Below, one piece after another: positions 1,651-59,939 of a DNA stretch of 64,000 nucleotides. Source of the stretch: Eledone cirrhosa. Its lineage: Eukaryota. The notes beneath the pieces were generated by a model. That model was given only the letters and a program-made list of their open reading frames with translations. It was not told the DNA's origin and searched no databases. Location of the stretch: assembly GCA_964016885.1 (NCBI GenBank), contig OZ024741.1:299150001-299214000 (forward strand), read 5' to 3'. How positions within the stretch are numbered: the first letter of the stretch is position 1; every line of letters starts with the position of its first letter. The position numbers and the translations under genes were made by a program.

Positions 1651-1992
<342 letters not shown>

Positions 1993-8000: not shown

Positions 8001-9758
8001 CTATCTATTTTCCTACAAAATACTCTATCTAGATATGATCTGGATGACCCGAGACGGTTTGTGCTAGTCGACATTGGCACGTTCGGGAAATCCAAACGGT
8101 ACCTGTCAGACAGTTCAAAACGCCTGAGCAGGTTGGTGAGGCTCTTGCACCCTCCTCCTCTATCCGCTAATCCCACACAGTCGTAGCGTGCATCTAAGTG
8201 CCGTTCCAGTCGCCCACTAACACTAAAGAGCGGAATGTTCCAAGACTGGTCTCCAGACGCCGGATGAAATCAGGCCGCCCTACTCTTGTCAGGGCATAGA
8301 CGGCCACTAGTCTGAAAGCTTGCACGTCTCCGGTGGTCACGTCCAGCACCACCAACTTACCTTCTGGGTCTAGGAAGATGGCCCGTATGCCGAGATCCAA
8401 ACCTCTCCGAAAAAGCACAGCAACTCCCCCCCACCCTGATCCCGGACGGCTGGGAGATGCGTACACATCGTAGCCGCCGAAGATCGGTGCGAAGACCCGT
8501 GCCTCGAAACTCGGAGATTCTGGTCTCGCTGATGGCCACCACATCTATGTTTAGAGACATGAGATTGATCAGCAGGTGGCCCTGCTTCCAAGACGACCCC
8601 AGGCCACGTACATTTATGTTACCTATTCTGAGAGTAGCATATTGGCTAGGATAGGAGGAAAACAAGTGAGAGGGGAGAGTTACAAAAAATTACCTGTGAT
8701 CCATCACTCCGACCATTGGTGGGTTTCTCCACGAGAATATCCGTGAATATTCTTTTGGTGATGTTCCCTCGGTAGTCTCAAATTGATGTGGGGAACATTT
8801 TTTTTAATGTTATGTAATTTTTTTGTGTAATTTCTATTATTTTTGTGTGTGGGGGGTGCAATTTTGGTGGTTTGTACGTAGTTTGTTTCTGTGATGTTGG
8901 TGTGGTGTTGAATGTAATTTAAAAGCTTTGTTATGTCTGTGTCTATGGCTGTGTATTGTGTCTGCTGTTTGGGTGTTGGTGTTTTCTGTGTTTTCTATCG
9001 TGTTGTTGCAGGTGACGATGGAGTAGATGGTAAGGGTGGTGGTGGTGGTGGTGGCGGTGACGGTGCTAGTGGCGGTGGCGTTGGTGGTGGTGGTGGTAGT
9101 GATAGTGTAGGTGGTTGTGGGGGTGTGGTTGTTGATGGTGGTGGAGCAGGTGGGTTATTTTTCACTTTCTTTTTTTTTTAAGGTTCTTTCTTCCTCTTTT
9201 ATGGGGGGGGGGGATGAGGGTAGGGAGTTCTTCCTTTTTTTTGTTGGAATAGTTCTCCACTCTTCGGCCTCATCGCACTCCTTGTCCGATTTGGCTATAT
9301 TAGGAAAGGGTATGCTTTCCATTGGTTTTGTGGGTGGTGGAAGAGATGGTGTTTGTGTTGTTGGGGATGGTGATTTCTCTTCTGCCACTGTGTTCTTTGT
9401 TTGTTTGTCTGCTCCAGTTGCAGGGCACGGCGTGGGTAGAAGGGGTGTGTGCGTGCCTGTTTTGGTAATTTTGTGGCAGAATGCCTTAAGGTGCGTCTTG
9501 TAGCTGCATCCATGACACCTTGGGCGCCTACCATCGACAGTCACGTGTAGATGGCTGCCGTCGTCCAGGTCTATTACATCGGGGATGGCCTCAACGATTT
9601 CATGGTTTGCTTGGACGATTAGCTCCATCCCCGACCCTGTCCAATTTTCCTGTCTTATTCGTATGACGTTGAGTATGGTTGTTGAAACGTTAACGTCAGC
9701 GAGGACGGCTGCCGTCAACCACGCCATCTCCACTGAGGGTGGAACCTGACCTACTCTA
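5089..9758 (-). mobile_element. Tx1/L1-clade LINE (subfamily A), 5'-truncated within ORF1, frameshifted
   Basis: ORF1 remnant 9155-9733 has a CX2CX4HX4C knuckle (CHGCSYKTHLKAFC). ORF2 fragments: APE (NINVRGL, ISETR, GDWN, YLDR, TDH), RT (KSPGLDG, FRPIT, DQSKPFDRV, RQGCPLS, YADD) and C-terminal zf-RVT (CPGC..GDETILN). 3' AATAAA then (TTA)n. Confidence 0.93.
9155..9733 (-). pseudogene. Tx1-like ORF1 (gag-like zinc knuckle), N-terminally truncated
   Basis: RRPRCHGCSYKTHLKAFC knuckle followed by a low-complexity P/T/K-rich tail, upstream of the APE ORF. Confidence 0.8.
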
Positions 9759-20148: not shown

Positions 20149-20174
20149 GTATATATATATATATATATACATAC

Positions 20175-20348
20175 AAATTTAAATAATGTTAAAGGCCATA
20201 CAATGCATTATAAAATTAAAAGTGCCAAAATAACAATATCATTTTACCTTAGAAAATTTAATTAAATTTGCTTAGGTAAGATTATATTGTTATCTTGGCA
20301 CCTTTAATTTTATAATGTATTGTATGGCTTTTAAAATTATTTAAATTT
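20175..20348. repeat. Imperfect palindrome (~75-85 bp arms)
   Basis: aaatttaaataatgttaaaggccatacaatg... is mirrored by ...tattgtatggcttttaaaattatttaaattt. Confidence 0.85.
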
Positions 20349-20619
20349 ACATTTAAATTCAACAATGCTTCAAGCAAACTAGAACACTGATATATCTATA
20401 AAAAAATGAAGTTTTTTTTTTTAATAAAAAAAACCAAAAACGAGTGAAAGTATAAGGAAAAGAAATCGAAAATGCAACTTGAGTCCTTTTAAGAATATTT
20501 ATTTGTTTCCTTTACCGGTTTCACAGTTCTCATGCTTTTCAAAAGTAAAATTTAAACGGAGGGTCTTGATTTTTCTCGCATCTGGTTGGTCTTCGAATGT
20601 CATTTCTGTTTTATGTGGA

Positions 20620-20965
20620 AATAAGTGGCTCGAATTGCTGTTTTTTTTTCTTTAAATTATTTTGTTGGTTGATAACTACCACGTGAATAAGTATAATAAA
20701 TTTCGCGCCAGTTCGTGTTACAAAGTTCTTATTGTATTTACCTTTAAAAATGTGGCTCAAATTGTTGGTTTTTTAAAAATATATTAGTGAAATTTTGTTG
20801 GTTAGTGACTCACGTGAACATCAACTTTCGCGCCAGTTCACGTTTGAGAGTTCTTTATTGCCATTTTTACTGAAAAATGTGGCTCAAATTGATTTTTTTA
20901 ATAAATGTAATTAGGTTGGTTGACGATTGTCACGTGAATAAGTATATCAGATTTCACACCAGTTC
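20620..20965. repeat. Diverged tandem repeat, ~125 bp x3
   Basis: gtggctc(g/a)aattg ... cacgtgaa ... tttcgcgccagttc recurs three times. Confidence 0.7.
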
Positions 20966-21636
20966 ATATATATATAACGGAAATTTTAACCTACTAAATT
21001 CTACTTCATATACATACATACAACTTATTGTTATTTACACTTCATCTCCGACCATCTGAGTTGTGTATGTTTAAAGGTTCTATATCCACGACAACCATAT
21101 AATATTGTAACATACATGTGACATTATAATTTATGCTTTACCTCCGGACATAAATAAAAGATAAATTAAGTAACTTAGGACTATCCACAACACTAAATGG
21201 TATGGTAATAATATAATAATATTATAAAATATAATATAAAACATAGCTACTACATCCGTCAATCACAACCGAATTTAATTTGGCTGTATGTATCATGTTT
21301 ATACTAAAGTTAGGGTTTTAGGTATCTATTCTGTCGCAAGTAATTTAGGACAGCCTAACAACATTCCCTTCTTTAATACAGAGGAGCAAACAGGATGTGA
21401 GAGTCGAAACGTGGGTGGGCTGCATCAGCTTTAGAATTGTACTTTAATATGTTCAGAAAGGATAAATGGCAAAATAGAACTCAGAAGACTGGGACCAAGA
21501 ACACGTATCCAACATGCTAACAACTCTGTAAAAACGACTGTCTAGATAGTAGTATAATAAATACTTATACCACAACACATTGTTTAGTATTTCACACCAC
21601 ATGCAAGTATACTTACATACATACATATATACAATA

Positions 21637-21674
<38 letters not shown>

Positions 21675-21680
<6 letters not shown>

Positions 21681-24600
21681 ATAAATGCTCTGAAATAGCG
21701 ATATATATGTGAATATAGACATAGAATATTCGAAAATATTCTGTATGTTTATAATAAACATTTTGAAGACCTAATCGCTATAGAATAGAATACGTCACGT
21801 ATTACAATTAGATTCTCGATAAAAGCAAGGGAAGTAATCTACGCGTTTCATTCTCGTTAGAAATCATCAGGACTACATATCCAGTGCTTTTATCGAGAAT
21901 GACACAGCTAGAGACTTATAGAATACTTAGCTGTGTACAGGAACTGGTTTGAAAGAGCGGTTGCCGGTCCGGCAGAAATTAGAAATTGGAATAAATGCTC
22001 TGAAATAGCGATATATATGTGAATATAGACATAGAATATTCGAAAATATTCTGTATGTTTATAATAAACATTTTGAAGACCTAATCGCTATAGAATAGAA
22101 TACGTCACGTATTACAATTAGATTCTCGATAAAAGCAAGGGAAGTAATCTACGCGTTTCATTCTCGTTAGAAATCATCAGGACTACATATCCAGTGCTTT
22201 TATCGAGAATGACACAGCTAGAGACTTATAGAATACTTAGCTGTGTACAGGAACTGGTTTGAAAGAGCGGTTGCCGGTCCGGCAGAAATTAGAAATTGGA
22301 ATAAATGCTCTGAAATAGCGATATATATGTGAATATAGACATAGAATATTCGAAAATATTCTGTATGTTTATAATAAACATTTTGAAGACCTAATCGCTA
22401 TAGAATAGAATACGTCACGTATTACAATTAGATTCTCGATAAAAGCAAGGGAAGTAATCTACGCGTTTCATTCTCGTTAGAAATCATCAGGACTACATAT
22501 CCAGTGCTTTTATCGAGAATGACACAGCTAGAGACTTATAGAATACTTAGCTGTGTACAGGAACTGGTTTGAAAGAGCGGTTGCCGGTCCGGCAGAAATT
22601 AGAAATTGGAATAAATGCTCTGAAATAGCGATATATATGTGAATATAGACATAGAATATTCGAAAATATTCTGTATGTTTATAATAAACATTTTGAAGAC
22701 CTAATCGCTATAGAATAGAATACGTCACGTATTACAATTAGATTCTCGATAAAAGCAAGGGAAGTAATCTACGCGTTTCATTCTCGTTAGAAATCATCAG
22801 GACTACATATCCAGTGCTTTTATCGAGAATGACACAGCTAGAGACTTATAGAATACTTAGCTGTGTACAGGAACTGGTTTGAAAGAGCGGTTGCCGGTCC
22901 GGCAGAAATTAGAAATTGGAATAAATGCTCTGAAATAGCGATATATATGTGAATATAGACATAGAATATTCGAAAATATTCTGTATGTTTATAATAAACA
23001 TTTTGAAGACCTAATCGCTATAGAATAGAATACGTCACGTATTACAATTAGATTCTCGATAAAAGCAAGGGAAGTAATCTACGCGTTTCATTCTCGTTAG
23101 AAATCATCAGGACTACATATCCAGTGCTTTTATCGAGAATGACACAGCTAAGTATTCTATAAGTCTCTAGCTGTGTCATTCTCGATAAAAGCACTGGATA
23201 TGTAGTCCTGATGATTTCTAACGAGAATGAAACGCGTAGATTACTTCCCTTGCTTTTATCGAGAATCTAATTGTAATACGTGACGTATTCTATTCTATAG
23301 CGATTAGGTCTTCAAAATGTTTATTATAAACATACAGAATATTTTCGAATATTCTATGTCTATATTCACATATATATCGCTATTTCAGAGCATTTATTCC
23401 AATTTCTAATTTCTGCCGGACCGGCAACCGCTCTTTCAAACCAGTTCCTGTACACAGCTAAGTATTCTATAAGTCTCTAGCTGTGTCATTCTCGATAAAA
23501 GCACTGGATATGTAGTCCTGATGATTTCTAACGAGAATGAAACGCGTAGATTACTTCCCTTGCTTTTATCGAGAATCTAATTGTAATACGTGACGTATTC
23601 TATTCTATAGCGATTAGGTCTTCAAAATGTTTATTATAAACATACAGAATATTTTCGAATATTCTATGTCTATATTCACATATATATCGCTATTTCAGAG
23701 CATTTATTCCAATTTCTAATTTCTGCCGGACCGGCAACCGCTCTTTCAAACCAGTTCCTGTACACAGCTAAGTATTCTATAAGTCTCTAGCTGTGTCATT
23801 CTCGATAAAAGCACTGGATATGTAGTCCTGATGATTTCTAACGAGAATGAAACGCGTAGATTACTTCCCTTGCTTTTATCGAGAATCTAATTGTAATACG
23901 TGACGTATTCTATTCTATAGCGATTAGGTCTTCAAAATGTTTATTATAAACATACAGAATATTTTCGAATATTCTATGTCTATATTCACATATATATCGC
24001 TATTTCAGAGCATTTATTCCAATTTCTAATTTCTGCCGGACCGGCAACCGCTCTTTCAAACCAGTTCCTGTACACAGCTAAGTATTCTATAAGTCTCTAG
24101 CTGTGTCATTCTCGATAAAAGCACTGGATATGTAGTCCTGATGATTTCTAACGAGAATGAAACGCGTAGATTACTTCCCTTGCTTTTATCGAGAATCTAA
24201 TTGTAATACGTGACGTATTCTATTCTATAGCGATTAGGTCTTCAAAATGTTTATTATAAACATACAGAATATTTTCGAATATTCTATGTCTATATTCACA
24301 TATATATCGCTATTTCAGAGCATTTATTCCAATTTCTAATTTCTGCCGGACCGGCAACCGCTCTTTCAAACCAGTTCCTGTACACAGCTAAGTATTCTAT
24401 AAGTCTCTAGCTGTGTCATTCTCGATAAAAGCACTGGATATGTAGTCCTGATGATTTCTAACGAGAATGAAACGCGTAGATTACTTCCCTTGCTTTTATC
24501 GAGAATCTAATTGTAATACGTGACGTATTCTATTCTATAGCGATTAGGTCTTCAAAATGTTTATTATAAACATACAGAATATTTTCGAATATTCTATGTC

Positions 24601-26154
24601 TATATTCACATATATATCGCTATTTCAGAGCATTTATTCCAATTTCTAATTTCTGCCGGACCGGCAACCGCTCTTTCAAACCAGTTCCTGTACACAGCTA
24701 AGTATTCTATAAGTCTCTAGCTGTGTCATTCTCGATAAAAGCACTGGATATGTAGTCCTGATGATTTCTAACGAGAATGAAACGCGTAGATTACTTCCCT
24801 TGCTTTTATCGAGAATCTAATTGTAATACGTGACGTATTCTATTCTATAGCGATTAGGTCTTCAAAATGTTTATTATAAACATACAGAATATTTTCGAAT
24901 ATTCTATGTCTATATTCACATATATATCGCTATTTCAGAGCATTTATTCCAATTTCTAATTTCTGCCGGACCGGCAACCGCTCTTTCAAACCAGTTCCTG
25001 TACACAGCTAAGTATTCTATAAGTCTCTAGCTGTGTCATTCTCGATAAAAGCACTGGATATGTAGTCCTGATGATTTCTAACGAGAATGAAACGCGTAGA
25101 TTACTTCCCTTGCTTTTATCGAGAATCTAATTGTAATACGTGACGTATTCTATTCTATAGCGATTAGGTCTTCAAAATGTTTATTATAAACATACAGAAT
25201 ATTTTCGAATATTCTATGTCTATATTCACATATATATCGCTATTTCAGAGCATTTATTCCAATTTCTAATTTCTGCCGGACCGGCAACCGCTCTTTCAAA
25301 CCAGTTCCTGTACACAGCTAAGTATTCTATAAGTCTCTAGCTGTGTCATTCTCGATAAAAGCACTGGATATGTAGTCCTGATGATTTCTAACGAGAATGA
25401 AACGCGTAGATTACTTCCCTTGCTTTTATCGAGAATCTAATTGTAATACGTGACGTATTCTATTCTATAGCGATTAGGTCTTCAAAATGTTTATTATAAA
25501 CATACAGAATATTTTCGAATATTCTATGTCTATATTCACATATATATCGCTATTTCAGAGCATTTATTCCAATTTCTAATTTCTGCCGGACCGGCAACCG
25601 CTCTTTCAAACCAGTTCCTGTACACAGCTAAGTATTCTATAAGTCTCTAGCTGTGTCATTCTCGATAAAAGCACTGGATATGTAGTCCTGATGATTTCTA
25701 ACGAGAATGAAACGCGTAGATTACTTCCCTTGCTTTTATCGAGAATCTAATTGTAATACGTGACGTATTCTATTCTATAGCGATTAGGTCTTCAAAATGT
25801 TTATTATAAACATACAGAATATTTTCGAATATTCTATGTCTATATTCACATATATATCGCTATTTCAGAGCATTTATTCCAATTTCTAATTTCTGCCGGA
25901 CCGGCAACCGCTCTTTCAAACCAGTTCCTGTACACAGCTAAGTATTCTATAAGTCTCTAGCTGTGTCATTCTCGATAAAAGCACTGGATATGTAGTCCTG
26001 ATGATTTCTAACGAGAATGAAACGCGTAGATTACTTCCCTTGCTTTTATCGAGAATCTAATTGTAATACGTGACGTATTCTATTCTATAGCGATTAGGTC
26101 TTCAAAATGTTTATTATAAACATACAGAATATTTTCGAATATTCTATGTCTATA

Positions 26155-26158
<4 letters not shown>
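21675..26158. repeat. 310-bp tandem array with central inversion (retrozyme array): ~4.8 units in one orientation (21675-23150) plus ~9.7 units inverted (23151-26158)
   Basis: Period is 310 (tgaaatagcg at 21691, 22001, 22311, 22621, 22931; tacacagcta at 23451, 23761 ... 25931). Units look identical by eye. (TA)n on both flanks. Confidence 0.97.
23178..23266 (+). ncRNA. Minimal type I hammerhead ribozyme (representative; 10 copies on + with cores at 23208+310n, 5 copies on - at 21864+310n)
   Basis: GTAGTC(23202-07)-CTGATGA(23208-14)-t TTCT aacg AGAA t-GAAA(23229-32)-CGCG-TA|(23238)-GATTAC. Helix I is extended by a 16-bp stem attctcgataaaagca/tgcttttatcgagaat. Helix III is the palindromic ACGCGU. 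Confidence 0.9.
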
Positions 26159-26194
<36 letters not shown>

Positions 26195-26195
<1 letters not shown>

Positions 26196-26535
26196 GCATG
26201 ACTACCTCTCTCTCTAAATGCAAGATTTCATTTTCCAGTCTTCTCAACAAGAAATATAAACAAACTTGCCGCAACACTTGATTTTAAATCCTTAATTTTT
26301 AATTCTTTTTAATTCTTTTTAATTCTTTTTAATTGTTATACTCAACACTTGATAAGATGGATTTCACTGATACATCGAAACCGGTTATATTATATATACA
26401 TTATAAAACTATTTAAAAAAAAATAATTGTCCCTCTTATCTTTTCAATAATGTCACTTTGACGAATCAAAGAAGATAAAAAAGGAAAAAAGAAACCCTTA
26501 AATATATTTTTCGTGCTATTTCCAATTTCACCATT
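26195..26535. repeat. Dispersed Penelope-terminal-like repeat, paralogue at ~28570-28925
   Basis: Shares caagatt(t/c)cattttcc, ttctcaacaagaaatat and aatgtcactttgacgaatcaaagaa with the paralogue; contains a degenerate hammerhead-like TTGATAA-gatg..catc-GAAA-ccgg-T. Confidence 0.7.
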
Positions 26536-35794: not shown

Positions 35795-36550
<756 letters not shown>

Positions 36551-38665: not shown

Positions 38666-40490
38666 TTTATTGTTATTATTATTATTATTATTGTTATTAC
38701 TCTTTGAGTCTCAGTCATTGATGTTAGTTAACTGGAAAGTTTGTTGAGATGAATATCAAGCCACTACCTGCAGCCTCAGATATTCAGGACGTATCGGAGG
38801 GTTCTTGCTGTTCCCGGCAAGCATGCCTTTTGAAGCGTTCCAAAAAGCGTGAAGGGGCCAATTTTCTTTAACCATCCCTGGAAACTTTTTGAGATAGTCC
38901 CTAGTGCGCCTATGACAATCGGGATCACTTTGACTTCATGGCAGTTCCAAATCCTTTTTACCTCCCACTTTAAGTCCTGGTATCGGTTAATTTTCTCCCT
39001 CTACTTCTCTTGCACTCTCGTGTCGAAAGGGCAGGCTACATCCACAATCAGGCACGATCTTTTTCTTTGTCCAAAACCACTAGGTCAGGTCTATTGTGTT
39101 CCAGTTTCTTGTCCGTCTGTATCCTAATATCCCACAGCACCTTCACCTGATCGTTTTCTATCACCGCCTCTGGCTTATGCTCATACCACTTCTCAGAATG
39201 TGGTAAATTGTTTACTTTGCATAGGTGCCAGTGGATCACCCTGCTCATCAAATCATGTCTCCAGCCCTTATAGTGAGTCTGGGCTAGGTGTTTACACTCG
39301 GATACAATGTGAGCCACAGTCTCCTCTCTCTCTCCACAGATCCTGCACAGTGGGCTAGCCTCCTCCTTGTAAATGTGGTGTTTCAACCACTTCGTTTTGA
39401 GGGCCTGCTCCTGCGCAGCCATTAACATTCCTTCTGTAGCCTTTTTAAGGTCTCCTCTTTTCAACCAGTTCCATCTCTGTGGATCTCTAAATTCAGTTTT
39501 CTCAAAGAAGGTACTATGAAGGGATTTTTCCTGAAGGCTTCTCTTACTCCTTGATGTTATTTCCTCCTTGGACATCCCCTGGCCTATTGTCCCCTCCTTC
39601 AGTACAGTTCTGAGCATTGGCTCCTTACTATCAGTCACGTATTTGTGTAGGTTGTTTTTCTCCATCTGAACACAGTCCTCTATGCTGATAAGACCTCTTC
39701 CACCCTCAGATCTCCTTAAGTAGAGTCTATCGACATCACTCCTCTTGTGGAACATATTGTTGATAGTCAATAGCTTTCTAGTCTTCCTATCCATTTCTTT
39801 CTGTTCAGCAACATTCCATCTTAGAATTCCCGCACTGTACCTAATAATAGACACAGCTCGGGAATTTACTTTACTTATGGCATTCCTACTGTTCAGATGT
39901 GACTTTAATACGCTCCTTACTCTCCGAAGGTATTCAGTTCTTATCAATTCCTTCATTTTTTTGTTCTTGATGTCATCAGCCTCCAGAACGCCCAAATACT
40001 TGTATCCTTCCTCAGAGTCAATTTCTTTTATCATCTCACCTGTTGGTATCTGGATTCCGTTACTTCTGCTCAAATTACCCCTCCTCATGACAATGACTCC
40101 ACACTTACTAATACCAAATTGCATACATATATCATTGCTGAAAATACGGACAGTGTCAACAAGCATATCCAACTCCTTCTCACTCTTCCCGAAGAGCTTA
40201 AGATCGTTCATGAAGAGGAGGTGATTGATGGTAAGCCCTCCCTTTCCCAACCTGTATCCTGCTCTCACTTTTCGCAGTACACTGGTCAGGGGCATCAGGG
40301 CAAGGACAAACAACAGAGGGGACAGACTATCTCCCTGGAAGATACCTCTCTTGATCTTCACGCTTCCCAAGGATTCTCCAGTTGATGTTAACTCTGTTTC
40401 CCAGGACTTCATACTTTTGCCCAACAACTGCCTGATGTTATCTGCCACCTTGAAGATCTCCAGGCTTTTGGTGATCCAAGAATGAGGCAT
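38666..40490 (-). mobile_element. R4/Dong-clade (RLE) non-LTR retrotransposon, family B, 5'-truncated
   Basis: ORF 39048-40490: PHSWI, GIFQGDSLSPLLF, HLLFMNDLKL, YKYLGV, RLYLRRSEGGRGL, AAQEQ, CRICGEREETVAHIVSEC, RHD, NRPD. (TAA)n tail at ~38666-38699. Confidence 0.95.
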
Positions 40491-42864
40491 AGGGTCATCC
40501 AGATTATATCTAGATAGAGTATTTTGTAGGGAAATAGATAGGTCTAGCATAGGCTGTCCACAACTCAAGATAGTAAGATACACGGAAAACAAATTCGTGA
40601 TCTGTGTGCTTGACTTAGATAGGCTTCATAGACGAGGACCCGGCTACTGGAAGCTAAACGCGTCCTTACCAGCGCGCAAGGCCTACAGAGACCGGATTAG
40701 CGAACTAGTTAAGCGAGCGTTGACGGGGGCCATCGTCAACAACAAGTGGTGGTTTGCTCTGAAAAGAGCAATTAGAATAGAGTCCATTAGGTTTAATAAG
40801 GCTTTAGCAATAGAGAAAAATAGAGCAGAGGGAGAATTAGTTAGAATATTAGACGAGGCGCTTAGCAAAGGCATCGCGACCGACGTACTTGCGGCGAAAT
40901 TGGCCCTTGACCAATTCTTAAATGCAAAGCACGAAGGCTGCATTGTCAGAGCTAGGGTGCGTGCTCTCAGACACGAGAGGACGAAAGCCGTTCAATGGGC
41001 CCGAGTGGCGGAGGCGCTTCGTGGCAATAAAGCCACCATCCGGTCTTTGGTGGACCACGACATCTGCTCTGTAGTGAGAGTGAACGGTCACCTTTCGGAA
41101 CCGTTCAACATCATGCGCTCGGTCCGCCAAGGATGTCCCCTCTCGTCCCTATTGTACGTATTGACTCTCGAGCCATTACTGCACAAACTGGAGACGTTGA
41201 GGGGGGGGGGGTCCCGCGCTAACTAGAATGCGGAAGATCCGTGTCAGCATATGCGGACGATGTCACCGTAGTGGTGTCGAACGCCAAACACATCGAGGCG
41301 ATCGGCACTCCACTAAGAGAATACGAAGCGGTGACAGGAGCAATGATCAGCCTGGAAAAGTCAGTGGGCCTGCAGCTCGGCACCTGGAGAGGCAGGTCCA
41401 TGCCGTCCAACAGCGTCGTCGGGCGCTGGACGGACGGACCGGTAAAATTGCTAGGGGTCTGGTTCGGTCCAGACCTCCAGACGGACAAAAACTGGGACGA
41501 GGTGACGAGCAGGGTGGCTTCTCTCACCCAGAAATGGGCCGAGAGGAAGCTATCCCTGAAAGGTCGAGCGGAGGTGGCTAACGCGTACATCCCGTCCGTC
41601 ATCTACTACCGCCTGACCGTCGTACCTTGTCCTAAGCCCCGCCTGACTGCGCTGGAGCGTTTGCTCTTTCGCTTCTTGTGGAAGAGACGCGCTCCGATGG
41701 TCAGGCGGTCCATCTGCTGTCAACACCCGCTACGTGGAGGGCTGGGCATGCCGTGGCCGATGATGCGCAGACACGCGCTCAGGCTACGACATCTCCACCT
41801 CTTCCTCGACGGTGATCAGGTGTGGTCGCCGTTTGCTAGACACGTTTTTCCCCAGCTCGTCTCCTTGACGGAGTTGCAGTCCTGGGTCAAGCGAAGATCG
41901 AGAGGGAGCGCCTGGAGATTGGAATGTCTTCAGGCGCTCATAGCCCTCGACCAATCGGGCAATGTGGTCGGTGGAAACTCCACCTTGGCGTTCTATAGGG
42001 GATTAGTGGAGGGTAAGAGCGACGACGTACTTGGAGAAACTCTAGGCGTCGACGAAAATCAACTAGCCAATCTCTTCGGAAGGACTTTCGGGCCGGGGCC
42101 TATGGACAACTTCCAGAAATCCCTGGCCTGGCAGTGCTACCGGGGAGCTTTGCCAGTTCGGGATAAACTCTACAGGCATGGAGGTGCCGTCAGCCAGGCT
42201 TGTCCGAGATGCGCACAGGGCGACGAAACCGTCCTGCACGCAGTCGTCCAGTGTCCGAGCATTGCTGACTTGTGGGTTTATGTCGAACACCTGCTGTCAC
42301 GTGTAGAACGGATCCAGCTATCAGCTGAGTCCATTATGAGGATTGCCCCGCCCTCTTCCTTTAGCCGGGAAGGGCAGGAAGTTTTTATTTGTCTGGTGGC
42401 CATGGCGAAAAAGATAGTATGGTGACACGTTTGAAAGGGCTGAAGACGAGCACTTACCTCTTCGGTGATGCCCTGATTAACTTTTTCAAATTTCATTTGA
42501 AAAGGAAAATCAGGGTAGAGAGGGAAGTGCTCTCTTCCCAGCATTTTGTTGAAAGATGGATGAGAGAAGCAAGTATGGCCCGAATGAATGGGCCTTCTCT
42601 GAGTATGTGTCTGTAAATTAAGGGTGGAAAACTGGGAGAGGGCACTTTCCCTTATGGTCAGGGTCACTGTGGTCTTTTAATGGGCTTTCTCCACAAATGT
42701 CCCTCGGAAGTTTCCCCCCTATTGGGGAATTTTTCCTTGTTATTTTATTACATCCTCTGTTTTTTTACACGCAAAAATGCCCATTTGTACCGTCCTGTAT
42801 TGTACTGTACTGTCCTTAATGTCTACTTTATGTAAACCCTTGTGGTTAATAAAGAAAACATTAC
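40491..42864 (+). mobile_element. Tx1/L1-clade LINE subfamily A, 5'-truncated in the APE domain, with an internal deletion at ~41060
   Basis: Near-identical to the reverse complement of 5089-8052. GYWKLN, RQGCPLS, YADD, zf-RVT; AATAAA at 42848; (TTA)n at 42891-42920. Confidence 0.95.
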
Positions 42865-50346: not shown

Positions 50347-50710
<364 letters not shown>

Positions 50711-56009: not shown

Positions 56010-57064
56010 CTATCTATCTAAGGCGGGTAAAATTCCCGAGATCCATGGACGAATTCTCTCCAGCGGTCTCTGTCCCTCATTATCGCTGCCATGTCCTGCA
56101 TCTCCAACAGACCAGTGTCTGTCCTGAGGGCATCAACATACGTTAACCTTGGCCTTCCTCTTCTCGTGTGTCCATGTAGGGGCTCCCAAAGGAGTACTGA
56201 GTGCAATGTCAACTCTGGATGTCGGTGAGCATGTCCACCTAACCTCAGTCTCCACTGTGTCACTTTTGAGCTGACTTTTGGGATGCTCCCATACAGCTCT
56301 GAGTTTTTCATCCTCAGTGTATACTGATTAATGTTCAGAGCCATCCTCAGCATTCTCGTGTAGCACCCATCCACCATCTGAGTGAGTTTCTTGGTCAGTG
56401 TCCAAGTCTCAGACCCATACAGCAGCACAGACTCCACTGCAGCAATGAAGAGGCGGATTTTCAGGTCTCTACGAAGGTCCGACTTCCACACCGATCTCAA
56501 GCTGTGGCACGCCGCCCAGGCCTTTCTCTTCCTCTCAACCACATCATCTTCCGTATTCCCAATCTTTGCTCCCAAATACAGGAAGTCCTCAACCAATTCC
56601 AGCGGCTTCCCGCCTACATTAGTGATCCCCTCTGGCTTCTCAACATTCTCTACCAGATATTTTGTTTTAGTCTCATTCATTCTCAGCCCCACACTCATCG
56701 ACACAGTCTCAACCTCCCGCATCAAATCCTCTGCCTCCCTCACTGTATTTGTCACCAAAACTATGTCGTCGGCAAATTCAGCATCCGATACATTTTTCGC
56801 TCTAACTCTCATGCTCTGAGCCGGTGCTACAGTAAAGCCAGAGTCCTGGTGTTTCTCCAGTGCAAGGCGCATACAATAGTCCACTACGATGATAAAAATG
56901 TAGGGAGCCAATGTATCTCCCTGGAGCACTCCAGCCAGTATCTCAAAGGACTCTGTCATCCCATCAGGTGTAATGACTTGGGCTTTGGTGTTGGTGTAGA
57001 GCAGTGATATCAGGTCCACCATCCTCTTGGGGATTCCATAAGCCTGTAAGATCTTCATCAGGCA
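56010..57064 (-). mobile_element. RTE-clade LINE, 3' half (RT domains 4-7 and C-terminus)
   Basis: MKILQAYGIP, GVLQGDTLAP, FADD, FLYLG, LLYGSETW, RGRPR..REFYPP*. Confidence 0.95.
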
Positions 57065-59281
57065 GTAACGGGAGTTCAGGAGATGTGGGGAATGTGGAGT
57101 TACCCTTTAGTTGTCATGACTCCCAGGTCTGCCCTGGCCCGGGGTGGTAGTACCTGTTAGGGTGCCATTTATGGGTTAAATAACTACCTTATTCGAGTGG
57201 CGCCGGTAAGGTATTGTCAGCCATTGAAAAGAAATATGGAGAGTCGATCTAACAGCACTAGGGTTAGAGCCCCTAATTACACTGTCAAGGAGCAGCCTGG
57301 TCGTTATGACTCTGCTGGCTTAGAGCCACAGAGAGGGCCAGTGGATGATGGATCAGCTGTCTCTGAGACAAATATAAAGAATGCAGTTTTGTCCTGCAGA
57401 AGAGCCATCACAATGGGCACTTTGAATGTGAGGACTATTCGGACGCTGGAGAAGAGAGAGGAGTTGGGACATCTGTTCAAGGAGAGTGGTATACAGATAC
57501 TTGCGATCCAAGAACACAGTATTCTACACGATGAGCCCGTGAGGAGTGTGATGATCGGGAAGAAGAGCCAGCTCATCACTACATCGGCAGTGAAGAACAC
57601 AACAAATGCTGCAGTAGGAGGAGTAGGTTTTGTGTTCAGTGCAAAAACCAATCTGTTGGTGAGGGAAATAATGCCTATCTCCCCGCGAGTGTTGAGGGTG
57701 ACCTTCAATGGAAACCCAAGACTGACAGTCATCTCAGCCTATAGGCCAACCGAGGGGGACAGTGATGTGAATGCGGAAGAGTTCCATGAAGAGGTGTGTA
57801 GAGCTGTCAACACCACTCAGGCACACACTATCCTGCTTGTTTTGGGGGACTTCAATGCACATCTGAGTAAGGAGGGCAGTGAAGATCCTTGCTGGTACTT
57901 ACATAACAACACCAACCGAAATGGAAGACTACTGAGAGACACCCTGCAGGAGGCGAACTTGATGGCGACGAACCTAAGGTTTAGGAAGAATCTGGGGAAG
58001 ATGTGGACCTACATCTCAGATATGCACCTGTCCAAGTCCCAGATTGATTTCATTCTGGTGAGGAAAAAGTGGCGGAATAGTGTTCTGAACACGGAATCAT
58101 ACAGCTATTTCAGTACACTGGGTAGTGACCACCGGCTTGTTATGAGTGAGGTCCGCGTGAGCTTAAGAAAGAGCAAGGCTCAGCCCCGGAGAACAATCTA
58201 TGACTGGGGAGCTTTCAAGGAAGATGATAAGCTACAGGAGAGGTTCACAGTGGAAGTGAGAAACAGGTTTAGTGCTCTGTGTGGAGAGTCAGAGGAGAGA
58301 GAGATTGGATGGACTGAGGAGAGTGTGAGGAGGAGGTACGGCCACTTCACCAATGCAGTGGCGGAAGCAAGTAAAACCCTGGTGCCGAGGTAAAAGAACA
58401 AAGGGAAGCACGTCAGCTCTGCAAGCCCAAAAGTGTGTGCAGCCAGAGAACACCTGAAAGCTGCCAGGGACCAATTCTATGCTGATCCTACGGAGGAGAG
58501 GATGGAGACTGTGGAGGTGATGAGGGAAGAGCTCTGTACCGCTTACACTGAGGTCAGAGAGGAGGCACTGATAGAGAAGATCAGAAGTGTGGAGAGAGCG
58601 GTTGACAGATCTGGATGTAAGGAGAGCTGGATGATCATCAACGAGATCACAGGGAGGAAGAGAAGGTGTTCGAGTCAGATCCAGGGAACGGGGCCCGAGG
58701 ATAGGAAGAGGAAATGGCTAGGCCATTTTAGGACCCTACTAGTAGAGCCACCCTCCACAGCCCAGAGCACTGGGGTGATCCGGCGGCTGTTTGAGGAACT
58801 GGATGTTGAGACAGAGCCCTTCACCAGAGAGGAGCTTCAGAGAGCCAAGAAGAGGATCAAGGAGGGCAAGGCTCATGGAGAAGATGGAGTGGCATCAGAG
58901 GTAATGAAGAGGTGTGATTTTGATGATATCATCCTGGGGTTCTGTAACGGGGCAGTGGAGAAAGGAGTTGCCCCGAATCAGTGGAGGATCAGTAACATCG
59001 TCCTAGTGCCAAAGAAGGGAGATCTCTCTAACACCAACAACTACAGGGGGATCTCACTGACGTCACTTGTGGCAAAGTCCCTCAACAGGATGATTCTTAA
59101 CAGGATCCAGCCTGAGATGGAGAAGAAGCTCAGGGACAACCAGAACGGCTTCAGAGAGGGTAGATCAACCACCAGTCACATCCTGATGCTGAGGAGGATA
59201 TTAGAGGGAGCTAGAGCAAAGTGCCTTCCTGCGGTCATGGTTTTCCTTGACTTTAGGAAGGCCTTTGATTCTGTGGACCGT
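57065..59281 (+). mobile_element. RTE-clade LINE, 5' half (5'UTR, APE, RT N-terminus), inverted relative to the 3' half
   Basis: GTLNVRT, AIQE, GDFNA, IDFIL, SDH; KGDLS..NYRGISL, QNGFR, FLDFRKAFDSVDR, then (TA)n. One stop near 58391. Confidence 0.95.
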
Positions 59282-59379
59282 ATATATATATATATACGTG
59301 TGTATAATGGTAGCTATGATGCTTACATAGGCGGTATGCCAAAATTAGCACTCAATATTCATACAGAGCAGAGTGTGGA

Positions 59380-59621
59380 TAGTATAAAAAATCGAAAAAT
59401 CAGTGATGCATCTGGACTCACTTTATTGCGTGTTACAATTGCTTCGCCGGCAGGTAACTCGAGACAAGAACACTGTATGGATCTGGCTGATTATACGGCT
59501 GCAGGTTCCGTAGAATCAGCCAGATCCATACAGTGTTCTTGTCTCGAGCTACCTGCCGGCGAAGCAATTGTAACACGCAATAAAGTGAGTCCAGATGCAT
59601 CACTGATTTTTCGTTTTTTTA

Positions 59622-59626
<5 letters not shown>
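59380..59626. repeat. Near-perfect palindrome (119-bp arms, 9-bp spacer)
   Basis: tagtataaaaaatcgaaaaatcagtgatgc...tacgg ctgcaggtt ccgta...gcatcactgatttttcgtttttttatacta; about 3 mismatches. Confidence 0.92.
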
Positions 59627-59677
<51 letters not shown>

Positions 59678-59939
59678 ATAATAATAAAATTGAAGACTAA
59701 AATCCAAATTTCATCAAGCGTAGACAAGGTATGGTTTTGGTTTAAAAACACCCTGCACTTTGTGCATACTAACTAGTGTTAACTTTTAAAGCTCGGTGCC
59801 AGTCTTAATGCTACAGATTCAGTAGAAGTTAAGAATAGTTTGGTTTAATACCGAAACAATAATTAAAATTATAATCCTCAATTCGAGAGAAAAATTGTTC
59901 ATTTTACAATGCTTTACACACCATATTCCTTCCAGATGA

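Follow-up and report, generated by a model that had tools for sequence, protein, structure and literature searches.

How do two arrays of the same short repeat come to meet head to head inside a single microsatellite, each facing away from the other? The question is raised by a block of about 4.5 kb in Eledone cirrhosa (assembly GCA_964016885.1, contig OZ024741.1, the one assembly on which all of the anatomy rests), within the 64,000-nt stretch of DNA analysed here, which we call the window. Here, we propose that the block is probably a single insertion of a 310-nt element into (TA)n. An enzyme of the Penelope-like elements (PLEs) would have cut both strands of the target and used one element RNA as the template for lengthening each 3' end. 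The anatomy was read directly, here and at some 70 further loci, whereas we infer the template RNA, the enzyme and the sequence of steps.

The block consists of two opposed arrays of a 310-nt tandem repeat (GC content 34.5%) that fill window positions 21670-26167, 4.8 units making up the left array and 9.7 the right (Table 1). TRF reports the left array at 21675-23150 (period 310, 4.8 copies, 100% matches) and the right array at 23142-26167 (period 310, 9.8 copies, 99% matches), while repeat finding returns palindrome arms at 21670-23150 and 23168-24648, each of 1,481 nt, 100% complementary and 17 nt apart. A perfect inverted repeat of 1,481 nt cannot be due to chance. Since the hammerhead-like motif lies on the minus strand in the left arm and on the plus strand in the right, the ribozyme sense faces outward. 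A sequence-only reading of this DNA had described an orientation flip at 23150 through a 9-bp internal inverted repeat, a 17-bp spacer at 23151-23167, arms of about 1.48 kb and outward ribozyme sense on both arms, and each of these is borne out. Its palindrome of about 3 kb holds for 2,979 nt of perfect palindrome, but the insertion as a whole is asymmetric, with arms of 1,476 and 3,017 nt, the right array continuing 1.5 kb beyond the palindrome. Similarly, both outer ends do adjoin (TA)n as it had stated, but they are not merely AT-rich spots of the unit: they differ in unit phase, the left end lying near position 261 and the right end near 226, and fall at two fixed sites about 35 nt apart. 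TSDs are unreadable inside (TA)n at the insertion.

Table 1. Features of the opposed arrays, in window coordinates
Feature	Position	Strand	Basis and remarks
Left (TA)n flank (remaining part of the target microsatellite)	21640..21674	.	About 18 TA repeats adjoining the array; edge ambiguous by a few bases, repeat finder puts the arm start at 21670
Left arm, 4.76 units, ribozyme sense on minus; outer end at unit position ~261 (B-type, 'tail' end)	21675..23150	-	Repeat finding, TRF, unit mapping
Innermost left-arm hammerhead-like motif	23074..23116	-	One of 5 on minus at 310-nt spacing, the others starting at 22764, 22454, 22144 and 21834; mirror image of the plus copies; defined by Rfam HH9 alignment
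Junction microhomology ACACAGCTA, one half of the unit's internal inverted repeat, assignable to either arm	23142..23150	.	Overlap 9; junction analysis IR 0/26
Right arm, 9.73 units, ribozyme sense on plus; outer end at unit position 226 (A-type)	23142..26158 (TRF end 26167)	+	Repeat finding, TRF, unit mapping
17-nt spacer, the loop of the unit hairpin, in right-arm orientation	23151..23167	+	Repeat finding, 17 nt between arms
Innermost right-arm hammerhead-like motif	23202..23244	+	One of 10 on plus, each 310 nt up to 25992; Hammerhead_HH9 alignment
Right (TA)n flank	26159..26192	.	Sequence reading

What kind of element is the 310-nt unit? Each unit carries a putative hammerhead-like motif of type I, in the minimal form resembling that of PLEs. 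Its parts are a helix I of GUAGUC/GAUUAC, CUGAUGA, a helix II of UUCU/AGAA, GAAA and the palindromic ACGCGU, with a cut site predicted after GUA, between unit positions 96 and 97. The core has CUGANGA and GAAA, an A15.1-U16.1 pair and a cleavage-site residue other than G, ACGCGU being followed by A, and across subfamilies it varies at N7 only (U, A or C). Helices I and II flank the core (Rfam alignment and MFE fold), and helix III has shrunk to a loop-less palindrome. The pairing of helix I is kept across variants (GUAGUC/GAUUAC, GUGGUC/GAUUAC and GUAAUC/GGUUAC, with AGAUUC/GAAUCU in a related family), although this covariation is modest evidence because few independent changes are involved. 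The match to Hammerhead_HH9 reaches 15.8 bits (E 0.5), far below the Rfam gathering score of 52, and an Rfam search over 6 kb returned no hammerhead at E ≤ 1. The 43-nt motif core has 4,033 exact copies genome-wide (2,147 on the plus and 1,886 on the minus strand; control 0). The family has the DNA-level features of a non-LTR retrozyme: tandem AT-rich units in the 170-400-nt range, a type I hammerhead-like motif in each and many dispersed copies. The relevant passages on metazoan non-LTR retrozymes (Cervera and de la Pena 2020, PMC7229834; Li, Clavereau and Pollet 2026 preprint) likewise describe AT-rich units of about 170-400 nt repeated in tandem, every one bearing a type I hammerhead, with copy numbers in the thousands; in the axolotl motifs, as here, helix III is weak and helix II has a U.U at its base (PMC7229834). 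The likeness is one of DNA sequence. In contrast to what we observe, the passages searched in PMC7229834 and the preprint say nothing of arrays in inverted or opposed orientation, nor of insertion into a microsatellite; in the searched parts of the preprint, the lone uses of 'inverted' and 'microsatellite' concern neither array orientation nor insertion target.

Is the opposed layout peculiar to this locus? We fetched 72 complete arrays from elsewhere in the genome in three locus samples. The first 10 loci of the motif-core match list gave 9 two-armed arrays and 1 single-armed; 55 sites with the B-end pattern gave 46 simple and 1 complex two-armed arrays, 4 single-armed arrays and 4 sites that were not assessable; and among 37 sites with the A-end pattern, 26 lay in two-armed arrays already counted and the 11 new ones comprised 8 two-armed and 3 single-armed arrays. 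In all, 64/72 are two-armed, every one of them minus-then-plus with the sense outward, 8/72 are single-armed and none faces inward. The opposed two-arm layout is the family's standard insertion form and not a one-off. The outer ends follow an equally strict rule, one lying at unit position 214-235 and the other at 253-268, about 35 nt apart, in 64/64 two-armed arrays, with no A+A or B+B pair (0/64). A (TA)n run borders both flanks in 68 of the 70 arrays counted by script, and one flank in the other 2. Arm lengths show no enrichment for whole units, inner ends do not pile up at the predicted cleavage site and there is no length difference between A-primed and B-primed arms (Wilcoxon p 0.36); the lengths of paired arms correlate weakly (Spearman 0.29, p 0.026).

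These traits invite comparison with PLEs, for which our sources were Evgen'ev and Arkhipova 2005 and Arkhipova 2006, as cited in Craig et al. 2021 (PMC8557442), and Frangieh et al. 2024 (PMC11167929). The passages of PMC8557442 on PLE insertions describe (TA)n as the target of some clades, a tandem arrangement with a head-to-head inverted, 5'-truncated copy, and a tail of 30-40 bp, often on one end only; the target, the tandem and inverted copies joined head to head and the one-ended tail are found here as well. In vitro, purified PLE protein cleaves and extends both target strands, and begins RT at two adjacent internal sites that bound the tail (PMC11167929). By this analogy, our two outer-end sites, about 35 nt apart and one per end, match the PLE 'tail'. 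There are also differences: the 310-nt unit is without an ORF, the arms are multi-unit non-coding arrays and not truncated coding copies, and the single tail that in those passages is present 'often' is strict here (64/64). Animal retrozymes have themselves been proposed, in the relevant part of a preprint (10.64898/2026.07.22.740005), to be PLE derivatives.

As judged from sequence, a PLE RT and GIY-YIG endonuclease are encoded in this genome: searching it for GIY-YIG domains yielded 10,597 candidates, of which all 150 that were scored exceed the cut-off, and one 938-aa ORF combines RVT_1 with a C-terminal GIY-YIG domain. PLE coding copies also form sense-outward palindromes, with arms of 1,629 nt at one locus (L122) and 1,732 nt at another (L117). 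A blastn search of the unit against 23 PLE-bearing loci, from more than 10,000 candidates, found no partner PLE with the unit's start-site region; its matches were of 27-28 nt only, at the hammerhead core, in small non-coding repeat families beside PLEs. Rfam matches on the PLE loci were to miRNA only, and we rejected them as false matches driven by microsatellites.

In the proposed insertion, a PLE enzyme would cut both strands of the (TA)n target, and one target end would prime near unit position 226 and the other near 261. Each RT would then copy several rounds of the unit, from a template that may be a circular monomer or a multimer, and the 3' ends of the two cDNAs would pair via the 9-nt inverted repeat ACACAGCTA/TAGCTGTGT; the cDNAs having the same polarity, such pairing is possible only by inverted complementarity within the unit. 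In second-strand synthesis each cDNA would be the template for completing the other, and the outcome would be two arrays with the RNA-sense strand outward. Since the traits of the family match published PLE hallmarks, the dual-priming model gains inferential support. The sequence-only reading had also suggested that synthesis was primed from the two 3' ends at a break in (TA)n and that the cDNAs joined by microhomology, and this finds support by comparison and not by experiment, in the sense-outward two-armed form (64/72), one end of each class, private variants shared between arms, excess microhomology and the recurrence of the window's junction at 6 independent loci.

The strongest competitor, which we nonetheless consider unlikely, is twin priming by a LINE-type RT with an APE endonuclease in place of a PLE, as has been proposed for L1 copies that carry an inversion. 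Roughly one in four L1 insertions is inverted. L1 twin priming, reportedly set out by Ostertag and Kazazian in 2001, is said to start from two primers at a single staggered break and to leave the 5' segment inverted, with microhomology where the pieces meet. The topology would be the same, with the sense outward and microhomology at the inversion point, and fragments of LINE RT and APE are present in the window, where an ORF scan otherwise gave sub-threshold noise. Yet the enzyme class and target would be different ones: the arrays sit in (TA)n, without poly(A) or a T-rich target. Likewise, L1 offers no parallel for multi-unit arms or for a fixed pair of internal start sites 35 nt apart, each end using one of them, in 64/64 arrays, and the two-armed share of 89% is near-universal and far above the minority share in L1. 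Finally, the hammerhead is of the minimal type that reviews, in the passages concerned, tie to PLEs.

The joints between the arms bear on a second alternative. In the window the arms join through the 9-nt word ACACAGCTA (23142-23150): the minus run extends to 23150 and the plus run already begins at 23142, so that the two arms share the word and overlap by 9 nt. Ordinary units have ACACAGCTA and TAGCTGTGT on either side of the same 17 nt. It is well known that palindromes in DNA can grow from short inverted repeats, and it could be argued that a one-way array was inserted and later made palindromic at the DNA level. This might have happened after a break, with the 9-nt inverted repeat priming synthesis as a fold-back or hairpin, or by template switching in replication, the junction falling exactly within such a repeat. 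We regard this as very unlikely. Fold-back predicts equal arms with the same end phase, whereas here the left arm measures 1.48 kb and the right 3.0 kb, their ends lie at 261 and 226 and both adjoin (TA)n; nor would DNA-level inversion enforce the sense-outward orientation seen in 64/64 arrays. Moreover, most junctions at other loci overlap by 0-4 nt and lie at many unit positions. The window's 9-nt inverted-repeat junction is found at 6 loci, which belong to different subfamilies and whose flanks are unrelated, and the unit's 16-nt inverted repeat is the junction at 18. Of 53 junctions, 38 are without filler and overlap by 3.0 nt on average, against 0.76 in simulation, with an overlap of at least 2 nt in 29/38 against 18% expected (p ~1e-14). 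By a conservative measure 15/53 contain filler; one filler of 272 nt (L053) has no match to the PLE loci, to other fetched loci or to any Rfam family.

Could the palindrome be an artefact of assembly or library, from fold-back chimeric long reads or a collapsed repeat? All of the units are 100% identical, which leaves an assembler with little to anchor on. We hold this to be highly improbable, since an artefact would not yield A+B ends in every array, constant orientation, (TA)n on both sides and private variants shared by the arms at more than 60 loci. In addition, short contigs of runs X1-X3 (one sample, which may be the assembly's own data) contain many different minus/plus unit joints. Across 20400-24600, short read-derived contigs (one sample, probably the assembly's own data) cover the left flank at about 7-10x, and none of those listed bridges the window junction. 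A search with the left flank for an empty allele or alternate haplotig found the flank single-copy in the assembly, with one occurrence at 100% identity. Even less credible are two independent insertions in opposite orientation, for although (TA)n is clearly a strongly favoured target and might serve as a hot spot, no (TA)n is left between the arms, plus-then-minus is never seen, every two-armed array has one A and one B end, and arm-representative units are identical within an array in 22/28 cases (largest difference 2) against 12.7% of pairs between arrays (median difference 2).

Returning to insertion by a PLE enzyme, what might account for the strict pairing of ends? Because either start site served both strands in vitro (PMC11167929), the one-of-each rule is unexplained by published data. 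A tentative option, which we think possible but rather doubtful, is that a dimeric PLE particle primes both cut strands on one circular retrozyme RNA at sites 35 nt apart; the RTs would chase each other round the circle, and the displaced same-sense cDNAs would pair via inverted repeats or microhomology, each templating the other's second strand. If this is true, one mechanism would cover the PLE tail, inverted copies, pseudo-LTR tandems and second-strand synthesis, and the one-A-one-B rule (64/64) would be its footprint.

The sequence-only reading had further placed the left arm in an intron of a minus-strand host gene and suggested that a transcript through the locus could form long dsRNA. 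No host-gene exon was found in 12 long ORFs and 85 stop-to-stop ORFs (of 236 listed by script) in the window. The capacity to form long dsRNA follows, as a prediction, from the sequence of the palindrome. Each two-armed locus, being a long perfect inverted repeat, is a potential source of hairpin RNA and a potential fragile site, and such loci are easily mistaken for assembly errors in annotation.

How PLE integration is completed is an open question, its later steps being, by the in vitro paper's own statement, not validated (PMC11167929). The present family offers about 1,000 very young, near-identical insertions in which ends and joints are legible at single-base resolution. We see in them in vivo footprints of priming on both strands and of a fixed pair of start sites, each used once, with joints that favour inverted complementarity between two same-sense cDNAs. 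In this way an animal 'retrozyme' is linked to the PLE machinery by the anatomy of its insertions and not by phylogeny alone.

The array in the window typifies an abundant family built on a non-coding 310-nt tandem unit with a hammerhead-like motif, and is itself very young. A reading of window 21300-26500, together with repeat finding, resolved it into two blocks of head-to-tail units in opposite orientation (see table), with (TA)n directly at both outer ends, as the sequence-only reading had stated. When k-mers were mapped onto one unit, the minus run stopped at 23150 and the plus run began at 23142, so that nine bases, ACACAGCTA, are common to both arms. Since ACACAGCTA and TAGCTGTGT bracket an identical 17 nt in every ordinary unit, the strand switch passes through the unit's internal inverted repeat, which bears out that reading's account of the orientation flip. 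Its description of the array as a palindrome holds for the perfect inverted-repeat arms and their spacer but covers only part of the insertion: the right arm runs on for another 1.5 kb, and the entire insertion measures ~4.5 kb. Judging from the sequence, read-through RNA of the locus would certainly carry a 1.48-kb perfect hairpin. No host gene was detected in the 64-kb window by a scan of 12 long and 85 further ORFs. Insertion-free (TA)n/(ATAT)n tracts elsewhere in the window offer plenty of potential targets.

Coordinates of features in the window and at other loci of the same assembly (L, fetched loci with local coordinates; C, contigs; PLE, Penelope-like element)
Feature	Location	Orientation	Details
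Left block	window 21675-23150	minus	4.76 units, 100% matches
Right block	window 23142-26158/26167	plus	9.73 units, 99%
Perfect inverted-repeat arms	window 21670-23150 and 23168-24648	opposed	1,481 nt each, 100% complementary, spacer 17 nt
Reference unit	window 23452-23761		position 0 = first A of ACACAGCTA
Repeats just left of array	window 20165-20358 and 20619-20965		97-nt inverted repeat, zero spacer, 87% complementary; ~125-127-nt repeat, 2-3 copies
LINE-type fragments	window 39048-42425 and 56018-59776	both strands	RVT_1, zf-RVT, Exo_endo_phos_2; without PLE domains
Insertion-free (TA)n/(ATAT)n tracts	window 1655-1992, 35812-36550, 50350-50710		340-740 nt
Doubled arm junction	L041:5105-5282	minus-plus-minus-plus	unit positions 161/125, copies 173 nt apart
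Paired 16-nt inverted-repeat junction	C4:101767353 and C4:101769311	same strand	2 kb apart
GC-rich filler between arms	L053:3357-3628		272 nt
PLE coding palindrome	L122:3260-6525	sense-outward	arms 1,629 nt, spacer 8 nt
PLE coding palindrome	L117:2613-6102	sense-outward	arms 1,732 nt, spacer 26 nt
Distinct hammerhead unit (CTGATGATCGCCAACAGCGTGAAAC...)	L101:2420-2890 (C1, ~267.12 Mb)	two short opposed arms	(TA)n / (CA)n either side; 3' of PLE endonuclease fragment; 3' part 78-82% identical to 310-nt family positions 156-251
Third small family	L121:7560-7720 and 8500-8700; also L117:1683-1708 and L125	head-to-head once, single-armed once	in (TA)n; more complete type I hammerhead with CAG/CUG as helix III and an 8-nt loop; core CUGAUGAUUUCUAA...GAAUGAAAC, same as 310-nt family's

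The 43-nt motif core has 4,033 exact matches (2,147 plus, 1,886 minus) in the 3.0-Gb assembly, in which the window occupies C2:299150001-299214000, and a reversed-pattern control has 0. Arrays were drawn from three samples. Sample a, the 10 loci underlying the first 100 core matches, with ends unselected, held 9 two-armed arrays and 1 single-armed array, all assessable. Sample b, the first 55 sites of the outer-end pattern CCAAT(0-2 nt)(AT)5 (total 623 plus and 1,113 minus, the latter double-listed), yielded 46 simple and 1 complex (L041) two-armed arrays, 4 single-armed, and 4 not assessable and left out (L048, N-masked; L050 and L074, beyond the fetched 8.2 kb; L079, two-armed, cut). Sample c was taken from the other-end pattern CTATATTCA(TA)n (367 + 371 matches; reversed control 27 + 7) and comprised its 37 sites on contig C1 at coordinates below 140 Mb; 26 of these lay in known two-armed arrays and the 11 new ones, all assessable, divided into 8 two-armed and 3 single-armed. 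Pooled, these give 72 complete arrays, 64 two-armed and 8 single-armed. Minus-then-plus order holds in 64/64 two-armed arrays, so that the RNA-sense strand points outward, and none of the 72 points inward. The opposed two-armed layout is the rule for the family. Either duplication of a joint or repeated template switching to and fro could underlie the doubled junction at L041; for the pair on contig C4, a duplication of the local sequence and two neighbouring arrays are both conceivable.

Outer ends fall into two classes by unit position, and all 64 two-armed arrays, as well as the window's, have one of each: an A-type end at 214-235, mostly ...CTATATTCA fused to (TA)n at 226, and a B-type end at 253-268, mostly ...TTATTCCAAT fused to (TA)n at 261, the two sites lying ~35 nt apart in the unit. 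No A+A or B+B array occurs among the 64, whichever end was used for ascertainment, and the rule is also kept by 9/9 two-armed arrays of the unselected sample a; the side of the B end is arbitrary (left 27, right 39). Among 70 arrays (omitting 2 whose TA flank and unit start are identical to another array's), a (TA)n run lies at most 25 nt away on both sides in 68 and on one side only in 2. LINE-type twin priming would produce the same topology, but its target, the two fixed start sites and the frequency all differ, and we consider it an unlikely origin of the arrays.

Arm junctions are scattered over many unit positions. By a conservative first-mismatch rule, 38/53 (window counted in) are filler-free, with a mean overlap of 3.0 nt versus 0.76 in 200,000 simulated random joints; overlap reaches at least 2 nt in 29/38 (18% expected; binomial p ~1e-14) and at least 8 nt in 4/38 (0.17% expected), all four of the latter located in inverted repeats of the unit. 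Fillers of 1-272 nt are found in 15/53, an upper bound because some are arm sequence with a mismatch. For the filler at L053, neither Rfam nor the remaining fetched loci gave a match; a switch of template to another RNA may have produced it. The window's exact 45-nt junction is present at 6 loci (C2 twice, C3, C8, C9, C10), which have unrelated unique flanks and differ in arm length and subfamily, and a junction at a 16-nt inverted repeat (positions 36-51/109-124, bracketing the hammerhead) is present at 18. Joints are thus commoner with longer inverted complementarity (16 versus 9 nt), as predicted by annealing between two same-sense strands. DNA-level fold-back as the source of the palindrome is very improbable, since its products would have equal arms ending at the same phase and would obey no rule of orientation. 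We regard an assembly artefact as scarcely credible; it cannot account for regularities over >60 loci. The short read contigs bearing on this question come from one sample and show many minus/plus joints of the unit, but among those listed none spans the window's own junction.

Representative units of both arms are identical in 22 of the 28 arrays having at least one full unit per arm, to which the comparison was restricted, with a maximum difference of 2; between arrays, the median difference between units is 2, with 12.7% of pairs identical. The subfamily length variants of 308, 311 and 312 nt are common to both arms. Each array is, as its arm sequences indicate, the product of one event, and two independent insertions are practically excluded by the shared variants, the constant orientation and the lack of TA separating the arms.

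In the relevant passages of Craig et al. (2021; PMC8557442), PLE insertions are 5'-truncated partial tandems, frequently directly adjoined by a 5'-truncated inverted copy and often with a 30-40-bp 'tail' at one end only; (TA)n is preferred by Naiads and hypothetically by Neptune too, and the origin of the tandem and inverted structures is stated as undefined. A purified PLE protein, a dimer by prediction that prefers AT-rich DNA, differs from R2 and L1 in that it cuts both strands of the target and extends each of them. Its reverse transcription begins at two neighbouring internal positions of the RNA, which mark the limits of the tail, and requires no homology with the DNA at the cut (Frangieh et al. 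2024; PMC11167929). A 2026 preprint (10.64898/2026.07.22.740005) argues for PLE descent of animal non-LTR retrozymes from distribution and phylogeny. A GIY-YIG search of the assembly returned 10,597 candidates, with 150/150 scored above the cut-off, and a 938-aa ORF carries RVT_1, with a GIY-YIG domain at its C terminus. PLE coding fragments also form near-perfect palindromes, with endonuclease ends outward and microsatellites nearby, and two further small hammerhead families stand head-to-head in microsatellites (L101, L121). The 310-nt family shares every defining trait of PLE-type insertion that was assessed, apart from kinship to a specific autonomous PLE: for that trait, comparison of the unit with 23 PLE-bearing loci, out of more than 10,000 candidates, showed only short matches, of 27-28 nt at the hammerhead core, located in small non-coding families next to PLEs. 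Our literature search found no report of retrozymes described as head-to-head: the accessible text of PMC7229834 makes no mention of inverted arrays or microsatellites, and the 2026 preprint has nothing on array orientation, head-to-head or palindromes ('inverted' occurs only within a reference title, 'microsatellite' only in a satellite-birth remark). In openly searchable main texts, the opposed layout is thus documented for PLEs but nowhere explicitly for retrozymes.

Is the motif a hammerhead? An Rfam search of 6 kb of array gave no hammerhead at E<=1, and the sole match of a single unit, Hammerhead_HH9 (15.8 bits, E 0.5), lies below the gathering score of 52 for hammerhead membership. Despite this score, the HH9 alignment locates all core elements: helix I (GUAGUC/GAUUAC), the core boxes CUGAUGA and GAAA, helix II (UUCU-AACG-AGAA above a U.U pair) and, replacing helix III, the loop-less palindrome ACGCGU, then A. 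PLE pseudo-LTRs harbour minimal type I hammerheads without non-conserved helix III nucleotides, for which dimer cleavage is possible (review passages in PMC7761336), and one axolotl retrozyme class is reported to have a U.U at the helix II base (PMC7229834). Across ~540 units taken at other loci, the core varies at N7 alone (U, A or C); substitutions in helix I preserve its pairing, and loop II is free to vary. In a small related family of this genome, helix I differs but still pairs (AGAUUC/GAAUCU), and helix III is properly formed. The MFE fold of the linear monomer (-72.5 kcal/mol, z = -3.9) contains helices I and II. Core alignment, review descriptions, N7-only variation, paired helix I and MFE fold point to a probable PLE-type minimal hammerhead, with predicted cleavage.

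How might such an array be made? The sequence-only reading proposed a two-primer cDNA origin; inference from the anatomy supports dual priming, for which PLE-type integration is the better label. A PLE particle would cut a (TA)n tract on both strands; on the element RNA, one 3' end would start its cDNA at site A and the other would start at site B, and each enzyme would copy the unit for 1 to >26 rounds. The same-polarity cDNAs would then anneal to each other at their 3' ends by a few bases or, as in the window, by an internal inverted repeat, and each would be completed using the other as template; single-armed arrays would be events with one end only extended. We infer these steps from an anatomy that is itself directly seen. 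The template could be either a circle or a multimer: inner arm ends show no pile-up at the predicted cleavage site, which speaks against cleaved linear monomers, and, the family being young and nearly uniform, a circle would more easily sustain the arms of >26 units seen at L050 and L074. PLE protein in vitro used both start sites on both strands, whereas 310-nt arrays are strictly one-A-one-B, a rule that those data therefore do not predict. Its strictness suggests that both primers share a single template molecule, our boldest remaining reading. The 310-nt family provides natural data of unusual clarity on how PLEs complete their integration.
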